A stretch of DNA of 64,000 nucleotides from positions 2,400,001 through 2,464,000 of the forward strand of contig OZ241875.1 in assembly GCA_965203325.1 (NCBI GenBank). Reading direction: 5' to 3'. How positions within the stretch are numbered: the first letter of the stretch is position 1; the number at the start of each line of letters is the position of its first letter. This stretch comes from a bacterium. Lineage in GTDB: Bacteria > UBA8248. Under the pieces are notes generated by a model. The model was not told the DNA's origin. It saw only the letters and a program-made list of their open reading frames with translations, and searched no databases. The position numbers and the translations under genes are program-made. Below are positions 6,417 through 9,148 of the stretch, one piece after another.

Positions 6417-7142
6417 TTAACTATCCCCCGCCGGCGGCCAGATGCGCTCGCCCAGACTCGGGGAACTGGGCGCGTGGACGAGGGTGTTCACGGCCTGGCG
6501 CGAGCGGGGTATCTTCTCCGTCGTGAAGTTCTTCTGAAGCGATTCCAGGGATACCCACTCATAGAGAATCCCGTGCTTCGCCCAGCCCGATACCGATACG
6601 AGATTGCGCGCGCCGACACATCCCTCCATGCTCACGAGGCGCGGCATACGCACCTGGGCGTACCAGCAACCGAGCTCGTCCTCGTTCTCGACGGCGTTGA
6701 TGTTGAAGGTTCCGAACTGGATACCCGGACCCGGCGTGATTCCCGGCGCGCGGGTCTTGAACTCGGGACCGTCGATGCGGTTGTGCTCCATGAAGATGCA
6801 AGAGCGCGCGTTCAATCGCCGCCCGAGCATTTCCCGGTCATCCGCCGTCATCTTCTCCGCCATCTGTTCGGGACTCGGGTCCAGAAAAGCGTTCGGCGAG
6901 AGTGCGCCGTAGAGCATCAGGTACTGAACCCCCTTAGGCACGCTCGCGTCGTCCGTGTGGTGGACGACGCCCCGGATCCGTTCCTCACGCTCGGGCGTGA
7001 CGACGTTCTTCACGTGCGCCGCCCAGAGGTAACCCGGACGCGCAAGCGCTTCGGGGATGTGGACCTCGTGAAGCCAGGTGATGTATTCATCCGCTCCCTC
7101 TTCGGGAAGGTCGTACCATACCGCCCAGATTCCTCGGTCCAT
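6417..7142 (-). CDS. Hypothetical protein, probably two dimeric alpha/beta-barrel (EthD/DUF4286-like) domains
   Basis: Repeated pattern 'EYITWLHEVHIPEALARPG' and 'ELGCWYAQVRMPRLVSMEG'; GAGGAG SD upstream of the start. Confidence 0.65.
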   Translation of the reverse strand: MDRGIWAVWYDLPEEGADEYITWLHEVHIPEALARPGYLWAAHVKNVVTPEREERIRGVVHHTDDASVPKGVQYLMLYGALSPNAFLDPSPEQMAEKMTADDREMLGRRLNARSCIFMEHNRIDGPEFKTRAPGITPGPGIQFGTFNINAVENEDELGCWYAQVRMPRLVSMEGCVGARNLVSVSGWAKHGILYEWVSLESLQKNFTTEKIPRSRQAVNTLVHAPSSPSLGERIWPPAGDS

Positions 7143-7180
7143 TTATCGTTTCTCCTCTTTGGTGTGATTCATAATTGCTC

Positions 7181-7834
7181 TCAATCGTTGGGTTCGGGGA
7201 AGGCGTCCGGCCAGTTGTCCAGAACTTCCTGCAGATAAGCCTTGAGTTTCGCCGGGTCGGGCCGGAGGCGGCCTACGTCCTCGACGATATCTATTTCGTC
7301 GTTCGGCAGCTTGAGTGAATCGTGGTAGCGGTTTCTCATGTTGAAATAGCTGATGACGAAGGTGAGTTCCACGAACTCTGCGTCCGTGAAATGCTTTTGC
7401 ACTTCCTCGGCCACGTCGTCCCGGAACTTGGCGGAGTTGCGCGTGACGTGTTCGGCCCAGAGGACGGTCGCTTTTTCCCTTGGGGTCAGCAGCGGCGAAT
7501 CCATGTACTCATCCGAGCCGATGGCGGCGACGTGTTCATCGGTGATTCCCAGCACCCGGCCGAGAGCGGTGTTGTGCGCGAGTCAGTAGTCGCACCCGTT
7601 CAACTGGCTGGTCTTGATGACGGCGATCTCTTTTATCTTGGAAGAAAGCACGGTGCCGAGCCCCTCGCGCATCAGTGTCTGGACGAGGGGATAGAAGATG
7701 CGCGCGAGAAACGGGGAGTGCGCCGTCGCCCGGGTGGAATTGACCTGCCTGCTTTGGAAGTTGTTCAGGATGTCGAAGGTGCGCGCGACCTCGCCTTCTG
7801 CTCCCTCCCTGCCGAGCAACGGAACTCTGGACAT
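7181..7834 (-). CDS. AhpD/carboxymuconolactone decarboxylase family protein, probable selenoprotein (CxxU; TGA at 7583-7585)
   Basis: ORFs 7583-7924 and 7181-7555 are in the same frame and join as ...KEIAVIKTSQLNGCDY-TGA-LAHNTALGRVLGITDE..., matching the AhpD ExxxxxxSxxNxCxxCxxH motif. AGGAG SD precedes ATG 7834. Confidence 0.85.
7549..7569 (-). promoter_or_regulatory. Putative bacterial SECIS hairpin of the AhpD-like gene
   Basis: mRNA CCGCUCUC-GGCC-GGGUGCUGG folds by eye with the apical GG at +22/+23 after UGA. Confidence 0.5.
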
Positions 7835-8323
7835 GGCCACTCCTTCTCGAATGCGTGCTCCGAGTGTTTTGCTGAGGAATAATTCATCTTCCCACAATGA
7901 GCGCCATCTTTCACGCAGGCGCACGGAATCGCGACAGACTTCTATGGTGGTCTATATCAACAGAGCACAAGTTGAAGTGCAGAGGCATCGATTGAATTTT
8001 CGCTTTGCATGAGTAGATTTTACCCAACGGCATGAATATTTTCTAATGAATTACACCCAAGAAATTGGAATGAAAAAAGTCGAGCCGATAAAATCTCTTC
8101 CCACCAAACGAAATTCCTCCCATCCCCAAAAGGGACGCTATGGCGTAAATTGAATTGAGAAACATAATGTGAAGCCTGCCCTTGGGCCATGCTTATCGTT
8201 TTTTGTTGCCATATTTCCATAGGTGTGAAGTTCTCAGGGAGAGGATGTAACAATTATTGCGAGGTGTATTTGACTGTGATATACGCATTTTTTGCCGCCC
8301 GTTTTTTTAGAAGGGATGCGTGA

Positions 8324-9148
8324 GTGGTTCACACCTTTGGGAAGCAAAAACTCAAAGTACTGATCACAGTAAAAACCTATCCAATTCCATCTGTGAAATA
8401 CGACGAATTGGTTTGCACTGCAGGAGTAACAGAGAATGGGGACTTTGTGCGCCTCTATCCAATTAATTTTCGGGACTTGGAATTCAGTAAACAATATAAG
8501 AAATACCAATGGATTGAGATCATGGCTGAGAAACATCAAGGGCGTGATGTTCGAAAGGAAAGTTATCGACCTGACAGTGAATCAATCAAGATTATAGGTG
8601 AGCCAATTAAGAGTAATCCAGGAAATTGGAGAGAGCGTGCCCGCTATGCGTTGTTGAAAAAAGCACGCTCTATGGAAGATCTATATGAACGTCAGGAAAC
8701 CGACAGAACATCTCTTGGTATTTTCAAACCTAAGAAAGTACATGATCTTGTCATATCTGAAGACGACCCGAATTGGAAGCCTGCTTTCTTAGATGCACTC
8801 CGCCAAGCTAGGCTATGGGAGACACGCAAGAAGAGCAAAGAACCTCCCCGTAAAGTGCCTTTTAAGTTTCATTATAAATTTGAGTGTGATGACGAAAGAT
8901 GCAAAGGGCGCCATAAGATGATGATTGAAGATTGGGAAGTAGGTGCTCTTTTTTGGAGGCTAGTGGATCAAGGATATTCACATTCTGAGGCTGCAAAATC
9001 TGTAAGGAGAAAATTCTTAGATGAACTTTGTGGTGATGACAAAGACACCTATTTTTTTGTTGGAACGATCCTTGCCCACCCGAAAAGTTGGGTTGTAATC
9101 GGAGTTTTCTATCCTAAGATTGAACAGCAAACACGGCTGTTTGATTAG
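8324..9148 (+). CDS. Conserved hypothetical protein (VKTYPxxSxKYxExVCTAG family), C-terminal QxxLF
   Basis: 274-aa uninterrupted ORF in AT-rich DNA with motif-like blocks RLYPI.FR, KYQWI, SLGIFKP, CxxxxCxxxH, DWE, FFVGT and IGVFYP. Confidence 0.8.
   Translation: MVHTFGKQKLKVLITVKTYPIPSVKYDELVCTAGVTENGDFVRLYPINFRDLEFSKQYKKYQWIEIMAEKHQGRDVRKESYRPDSESIKIIGEPIKSNPGNWRERARYALLKKARSMEDLYERQETDRTSLGIFKPKKVHDLVISEDDPNWKPAFLDALRQARLWETRKKSKEPPRKVPFKFHYKFECDDERCKGRHKMMIEDWEVGALFWRLVDQGYSHSEAAKSVRRKFLDELCGDDKDTYFFVGTILAHPKSWVVIGVFYPKIEQQTRLFD

Follow-up and report, generated by a model that had tools for sequence, protein, structure and literature searches.

A predicted AhpD-like selenoprotein gene, cut short in public annotation at its in-frame UGA, in a bacterium of the UBA8248 lineage

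We analysed a stretch of 64,000 nucleotides (the window; positions 2,400,001 to 2,464,000 of contig OZ241875.1) and found that positions 7834..7181 of its minus strand very probably constitute one intact gene for a 217-residue AhpD-like, CMD-fold thiol/selenol oxidoreductase, in which UGA codon 84 would be read as selenocysteine (Sec). On the comparative sequence data, the apparent stop in the middle of this gene almost certainly codes for selenocysteine. As public gene calls give in its place a 124-residue stump that lacks the active site, the redox capacity and the selenium demand of the lineage are under-counted. AhpD-like CxxU selenoproteins have been on record as a family since 2005, and what the present study chiefly adds is a corrected annotation; only an apparently shifted register of the SECIS element and a recurrent neighbouring gene go beyond what is known.

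Background

AhpD-like selenoproteins have been described from environmental DNA. The Sargasso Sea data contained 27 CXXU sequences named 'AhpD-like protein' and assigned to COG2128 (PMC1088965). In the GOS data, the family AhpD-like 1 comprised 299 selenoproteins and 902 Cys homologues, and AhpD-like 2 comprised 70 and 207, respectively (PMC2398784). A review from 2026 tables the AhpD-like selenoproteins with the model TIGR01926 (PMC13188914).

Methods

The genome that was searched is a single contig of 4.39 Mb (G000:C1). For the species-wide scan, the Cys forms were used as the seed against one genome per species, and 79 loci were obtained. A quick FastTree phylogeny was computed from 94 distinct proteins (80 Sec and 14 Cys forms) with the Sec/Cys column masked, and it was rooted at the midpoint. 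In all descriptions of hairpins, columns are counted from the U of the UGA as column 1.

Results and discussion

The gene and its reading frame

With the internal TGA taken as Sec, the minus-strand frame from 7834 to 7181 encodes 217 residues and is closed by another TGA at 7183..7181. The sequence around the internal TGA is KTSQLNG-C81-D-Y-U84-LAHNTALGR. An earlier note on this DNA had described two open reading frames separated by a TGA on the second Cys of the AhpD motif; the TGA does lie at 7583-7585 within CxxU, but the note left the minus strand unstated, and a plus-strand translation of 7181..7834 is meaningless. The features of the gene are the following.

7181..7834, minus strand: complete gene of a predicted AhpD/CMD-family selenoprotein, 217 codons and the terminal TGA (18 orthologues, all of 654 nt)
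7840..7845, minus strand: Shine-Dalgarno-like AAGGAG, five bases 5' of the ATG (7834..7832), read directly from the sequence
7592..7594, minus strand: codon TGC of Cys81, the first residue of CxxU, invariant in two alignments
7583..7585, minus strand: UGA codon 84, second position of CxxC/U, predicted Sec (Cys in full-length homologues)
7181..7555, minus strand: GTG-started ORF of 124 residues, a C-terminal piece that public calls substitute for the whole gene

Under translation table 11, the region is read as the ORFs 7583..7924 and 7181..7555 (both on the minus strand), the latter of 124 amino acids. In the public protein collection, all but one of the 56 entries P0006-P0061 have 124 residues, with 87-96% identity and 56-57% coverage of the query. 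The earlier note had proposed a 217-residue selenoprotein that is broken up by annotation, and the public calls, which show only the 124-residue C-terminal piece, agree with this.

Contigs of three other public sequencing runs span the TGA (X1, 7446-7900; X7, 7473-7633; and X17, from an RNA library, 7531-7832). The possibility that other runs carry TGC or TGT here, also considered in the earlier note, received no support: no difference at 7583-7585 appears among those listed for the bridging contigs, which are assemblies rather than raw reads. The RNA-library contig X17 is no proof of transcription, and the stretches of 7100-7900 without contig cover are uninformative. Most of the public runs that hold window positions 7100-7900 carry the label sponge metagenome; in run X7, which has this label, three of eight pieces had at least 99% identity.

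Protein family and active site

The predicted protein matched the Pfam family CMD (PF02627) with 31.9 bits (cut-off, 23) over residues 60-128, a range that spans the TGA, and the AhpD core domain TIGR00778 only marginally (28.6 bits; cut-off, 27.8). The best solved relatives are the structures of PA0269 (2IJC, 2O4D, and 7XW1), with E values of 2e-15 for the single sequence and 1e-19 for the family profile. Their alignment covers residues 63-171 and places CAYC on CDYU. From these matches to solved structures, the predicted fold is AhpD-like/CMD.

PA0269 of Pseudomonas aeruginosa is described in the consulted text of PMC3141380 as an AhpD-like protein with weak peroxidase activity and with a proton relay of Glu36, Cys48, Tyr50, Cys51, and His55. 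The first four of these residues align with E69, C81, Y83, and U84 of our protein, PA0269 having Cys instead of Sec. However, His55 is found at +4 from the second Cys (CAYCVNMH), whereas H87 of our protein is found at +3 (CDYULAH) and N88 occupies the column of His55. The residue set of the relay is thus present, but its spacing, Glu...Cys-x-[Tyr/His]-Cys-x3-His, is not, as the His is one position nearer. The His at +3 is invariant in 20 of 20 sequences of the alignment, the Cys forms included. In comparison with PA0269, our protein has about 60 extra residues at the N-terminus and 45 at the C-terminus.

Among the NCBIfam models, NF053654 ('YciW-related (seleno)protein') and NF041238 ('alkylhydroperoxidase-related (seleno)protein') were the best and the fifth-best matches. 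Both describe CMD-type proteins with Sec and Cys members, like the present one, and the scores fell below the cut-offs (63.3 against 310 bits for NF053654 and 24.7 against 175 bits for NF041238); the model TIGR01926 ('peroxidase-related enzyme') was likewise not reached (59.8 against 81.8 bits). Because the scores of the two NF models are far under the curated cut-offs, our protein belongs to a different subfamily, one for which no NCBIfam (seleno)protein model is reached.

Sec machinery and the use of TGA in the genome

The genes selA, selB, and selD and the tRNA-Sec gene, for which the earlier note had suggested a search, were all found in the genome, with 571, 393, 333, and 75.9 bits, respectively, all above the curated cut-offs. 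ARAGORN also reported a tRNA-SeC with the anticodon tca. The selD match (G000:C1:1726679-1727641, minus strand) has one in-frame TGA itself, and therefore the selenophosphate synthetase looks like a selenoprotein, too. As TGA closes 1924 of the 3802 open frames of at least 300 codons, for which it is the commonest terminator, it otherwise functions as a stop codon in this genome.

Conservation of the TGA

Protein matches were found in 48 of 61 related genomes, including all 36 of the same family. Among the matches listed, nearly all have exactly one in-frame TGA, three have none, and one has two; where a match covers the Sec column, a stop codon stands on it (32 of 32 matches, from 30 loci of relatives). 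In all 18 orthologues with 81-97% protein identity, which are free of insertions and deletions, the TGA is at codon 84. The dN/dS values against the window copy were 0.02-0.15 upstream of the TGA and 0.06-0.20 downstream of it (17 pairwise comparisons downstream), and dS reached values of 0.8-1.6 or more. Variable sites at the three codon positions numbered 23/12/68 upstream and 44/31/115 downstream. The low downstream dN/dS and this codon-position pattern indicate that the 3' half is coding and constrained; the decay of this half that the earlier note had envisaged as a counter-sign was looked for, and none was seen. In loci L043 (genome G015) and L050 (genome G003), the orthologue consists of two pieces in different frames, which may be a frameshifted copy or an assembly error.

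In the genome itself, tblastn gave 11 paralogue hits; the TGA coincides exactly with the Sec column in 10 of them (C-x-x-TGA), and the remaining one has Cys. About ten CxxU paralogues, our gene among them, are present in this selenoprotein-rich genome; the others are listed below with the Cys form (coordinates on G000:C1).

370428-371075: paralogue with TGA on the Sec column
1432094-1432726: paralogue with TGA on the Sec column
1653326-1653964: paralogue with TGA on the Sec column
1754253-1754903: paralogue with TGA on the Sec column
2009341-2009865: paralogue with TGA on the Sec column
280524-281003: paralogue with TGA on the Sec column
3729172-3729504: paralogue with TGA on the Sec column
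4369032-4369361: paralogue with TGA on the Sec column
3106781-3107146: paralogue with TGA on the Sec column
3930676-3931164: paralogue with Cys at the Sec column

Given the same column in 10 of the 11 paralogue hits and in every covering match of the relatives, chance falls far short of explaining where the TGA stands.

The species-wide scan reached Nitrospinota-labelled MAGs, Rhodospirillales, SAR324, Burkholderiales, Acidimicrobiia, and others. Homologues with Cys as well as with TGA at this position, which the earlier note had proposed to seek, were both found: the 84 matches on the column comprise 70 with TGA and 14 with TGC. The full-length Cys forms have 216-230 residues and the motif NGC-x-Y-C-[YFI]-AHNT (for example, P0063, P0066, and P0084). 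In the tree, the Cys forms make up two clades nested among the Sec forms, which needs two changes, and our protein falls within an all-Sec clade of 23 rows with a support of 100. On this tree, which has a midpoint root, the direction of change would be from Sec to Cys. The public proteins P0003 and P0005 (345-353 residues) look like tandem AhpD-like domains; the start of the first domain is cut, as if it had been called after a TGA, and the second domain has S-x-x-C instead of C-x-x-C/U.

Candidate SECIS hairpins

A bacterial SECIS is a hairpin with a G in its apical loop, located shortly 3' of the UGA. Two overlapping candidates were found, both with G residues in the apical loop 22-28 nt after the UGA.

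7549..7569, minus strand: family-type SECIS candidate, columns 17-37, apical loop GGCC, -4.9 kcal/mol
7547..7565, minus strand: alternative SECIS candidate, columns 21-39, 7-bp stem, loop CGGGU, -7.5 kcal/mol

The family-type candidate is the hairpin that the earlier note placed at +14 to +34, where +1 is the base that follows the TGA; this equals columns 17-37. It is present (7569..7549) but weak, with an energy not above chance. It consists of seven pairs with one U-U mismatch and one bulge, and it is the minimum free energy (MFE) fold of the 21-nt piece; in the 60-nt ensemble its probability is about zero, and the 66 nt 3' of the TGA fold like shuffled sequences (z 0.02). With these values and -4.9 kcal/mol, the hairpin is at chance level by energy alone. 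Folding energy was also considered as a discriminator between Sec and Cys forms and was rejected, in view of this z value and of the equal mean MFE of nucleotides 13-44 (-9.28 in the Sec forms and -9.34 in the Cys forms).

Pairing patterns were more informative. Most Sec forms have a common hairpin with the tetraloop GGUC in columns 25-28. In 78 distinct 48-nt Sec sequences, 77.2% of the cells of the helix 17-24/29-36 pair, a level that none of 500 shuffles attains (mean, 72.5%); in slid controls the value is 29-62%. The loop-closing pair 24-29 is formed in all 78 Sec forms (U-A in 56, C-G in 20, and G-U in 2, with 20 two-sided changes), the pair 22-31 in 75, and the pair 23-30 in 73. The covariation at 24-29 joins the third base of a Leu codon to the second base of the next Gln or Arg codon (CUU-CAA, CUC-CGN). 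In contrast, the pair 24-29 is found in none of 14 Cys forms, and only 50.9% of their cells pair, despite the same H-N-T-[AS]-L-G coding. As energy does not discriminate, this contrast between the Sec and Cys forms is the best evidence of a functional element.

In the clade of our gene (14 distinct sequences), 82.1% of the cells of the family-type hairpin pair, a value reached by 500 of 500 shuffles, and 96.9% of those of the alternative hairpin, a score reached by 39 of 500. The alternative hairpin shows one two-sided change in this clade, from U-A to G-C, and a recurrent change of G30 to U in its loop; elsewhere, 75.8% of its cells pair in the 78 Sec forms and 61.2% in the Cys forms. Either of the two hairpins may be the element that SelB uses; neither stands out by energy, and the pairing comparisons give them mixed support. 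The clade seems to have slid its SECIS to the overlapping register, a suggestion drawn from these pairing counts that goes beyond what is known.

Third-position diversity in codons 85-97 of the 18 orthologues was 0.145, compared with a gene mean of 0.311, and this is not the lowest window of the gene; over the SECIS, 7 of 11 codons vary, against 108 of 124 (Fisher p 0.059). A lowered synonymous diversity at the putative SECIS is therefore suggestive only. The lowest third-position diversity (0.11; gene mean, 0.31) was observed in codons 157-169 (window positions 7327-7365, minus strand). An Rfam scan of the whole window gave no match, which is uninformative because the coverage of bacterial SECIS elements in Rfam is limited.

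Alternative readings of the internal TGA

The frame is broken under table 11, and in the two relatives G003 and G015 the orthologue is in two pieces, as if frameshifted. These are the observations to be expected of a pseudogene, in which a nonsense change of TGC or TGT to TGA has killed an ordinary CxxC gene of the AhpD type. However, all 18 orthologues retain the TGA, with dS values that reach 0.8-1.6 or more and a downstream dN/dS of 0.06-0.20; of the 11 paralogue hits, 10 have TGA in this column, as do 70 of the 84 matches across many phyla. A conserved TGA and a 3' half that is not neutral contradict such an origin, and we consider it extremely improbable. Hardly any credence can be given, either, to a gene with two products, in which translation stops at UGA84 and the 124-residue ORF is started independently from the GTG at 7555. 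The annotation of 55 of the 56 entries P0006-P0061 as 124-residue proteins speaks for it, but both the CMD match (residues 60-128) and the PA0269 alignment (residues 63-171) cross the TGA, the 124-residue piece would lose the redox motif and the relay residues, the GTG is not preceded by a Shine-Dalgarno-like sequence, and each Cys form is a full-length protein in one piece (216-230 residues).

That UGA84 is decoded as another residue, by a near-cognate Trp or Cys tRNA or by a lineage-wide reassignment, is very unlikely as well. The inserted residue cannot be told from sequence data alone, but the genome has the full Sec pathway, with a TGA in selD itself, and TGA is the commonest terminator of its long frames. 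Moreover, the downstream hairpin is kept in the Sec forms and missing in the Cys forms, and the UGA stands on the redox Cys, where pairs of Sec and Cys are the rule in this family, as the consulted parts of PMC1088965 and PMC2398784 describe it. Selenocysteine at codon 84 is thus the reading with which we proceed.

Proposed decoding and catalysis

With UGA84 read as Sec, SelB would carry the Sec-tRNA(Sec) to the ribosome on meeting a small hairpin with G in its loop about 14-18 nt after the UGA; the candidate hairpin is located inside the conserved H-N-T-A-L-G-R coding stretch. Sec would then be inserted at UGA84, an incorporation that the machinery and the conservation point to. The product would have C81-x-x-U84 in place of the CxxC of AhpD-like proteins, with the relay residues E69, C81, and Y83 kept. 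By analogy with the family, the catalytic cycle would most likely run between selenol/thiol and selenenylsulfide, and the enzyme may reduce either a partner protein or an electrophile, of the peroxide type or another.

A recurrent neighbouring gene

The gene directly downstream encodes a protein that also accompanies other AhpD-like genes. Its family members beside CxxU genes in this genome are as follows.

Window 6417..7142, minus strand: gene of a 241-residue tandem ferredoxin-like (ABM/EthD-type) protein, 38 bases 3' of the stop codon of the predicted selenoprotein gene
G000:C1:1652563-1653291, plus strand: gene of the same family beside a CxxU gene
G000:C1:2008569-2009300, plus strand: gene of the same family beside a CxxU gene

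The 241-residue protein matched DUF4286 below the threshold (21.1 against 25.8) and no NCBIfam model; the Atlas groups it with 'hypothetical' and EthD-type clusters. Its AlphaFold model (12 sequences) is a tandem ferredoxin-like fold with pLDDT 82 and pTM 0.82, which resembles the 'putative monooxygenases' 3F44 and 3MCS, the anthrone-oxidase-like 5F9P, and also chalcone isomerase and sulfur oxygenase reductase (TM 0.5-0.64). Titles and the beginnings of abstracts found with DUF4286 held nothing judged related.

The gene follows the selenoprotein gene in 19 of 20 orthologue loci (L024-L043), and homologues with 33-46% identity adjoin other AhpD-like Sec genes in Rhodospirillales and at other loci. 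A homologue is present in 44 of 109 AhpD-seeded loci; the AhpD gene was the criterion for choosing both of these sets of loci, which overlap. Three of the five paralogues of the neighbour in the genome abut CxxU paralogues, once in the order AhpD then neighbour and twice in the reverse order. When the best 80 metagenome loci seeded with the neighbour family itself were considered, a co-directional AhpD-family gene within 70 bases was found in 10 (7 Sec and 3 Cys), and one more had an AhpD-family gene 818 bases off on the other strand. Among the 34 neighbour-seeded loci with at least 700 bases of flank on both sides, four showed the pairing. The pairing is surely recurrent and not due to chance; it is not obligatory and concerns a minority of the neighbour's family.

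This genome has three copies of the pair, with both gene orders represented, and other phyla have it, too. It is conceivable, though we put this forward only tentatively, that an AhpD-like CxxU (sometimes CxxC) protein and a 241-residue protein of the 'cofactor-less oxygenase' type form an undescribed two-gene redox module, in which the selenol enzyme would reduce or recycle its partner or the partner's product. If so, a possible product would be an organic hydroperoxide or an electrophilic aromatic from the sponge-associated habitat suggested by the run labels. The recurrent neighbour offers an initial lead to the substrate of AhpD-like selenoproteins. Our literature search gave no paper joining AhpD and EthD, and for selenoproteins together with sponge symbionts, titles and the beginnings of abstracts held nothing judged related.

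On the other side of the gene, a divergent upstream ORF of 274 residues (window positions 8324-9148, plus strand) had no Pfam or NCBIfam match, and no counterpart of it was seen next to the orthologues of other genomes. The window was also screened crudely for other selenoproteins by looking for TGAs that are flanked on each side by at least 40 open codons and have a Cys no more than 3 residues away, a screen that misses other motifs; it gave 29 candidates among 186 such TGAs, and in five of these candidates compared with Pfam, no family extended across the TGA.

Comparison with known systems

The structures 6OHI and 6OHJ of the debrominase Bmp8 also have the CMD fold; they were matched by the family profile with an E value of 5e-09 over residues 16-181, much more weakly than PA0269. 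AhpD of Mycobacterium tuberculosis has its CxxC (Cys130-x-x-Cys133) on a two-helix hairpin, like the motif of our protein, and its second Cys is the attacking residue. The mycobacterial enzyme reduces AhpC, whereas our gene has no adjacent ahpC, none being found among the neighbouring genes scanned. According to the consulted text of PMC3141380, the mycobacterial enzyme has a Glu/Cys/Cys/His relay and a different chain topology.

Three MAGs of UBA8248 (labelled 'Nitrospinota') with 48-54 selenoprotein genes are, in Table 2 of BSepDB, among the ten richest bacteria (PMC13326102). One BSepDB-listed MAG has the same isolate name as the record that contains an 85%-identical orthologue (L104). The present gene adds to this published picture, in which its relatives are among the bacteria richest in selenoprotein genes.

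As far as the consulted descriptions of the published AhpD-like selenoproteins go, these resemble our protein in several respects: they share the CMD/AhpD fold, have Sec in place of the second Cys of CxxC (predicted in ours), possess homologues with Cys, and come from marine or environmental bacteria. They also have a hairpin behind the UGA with G in its apical loop, for which our gene has the two candidates described above. From its motif, its size, and its NCBIfam neighbours, the protein would correspond to the family 'AhpD-like 1'.
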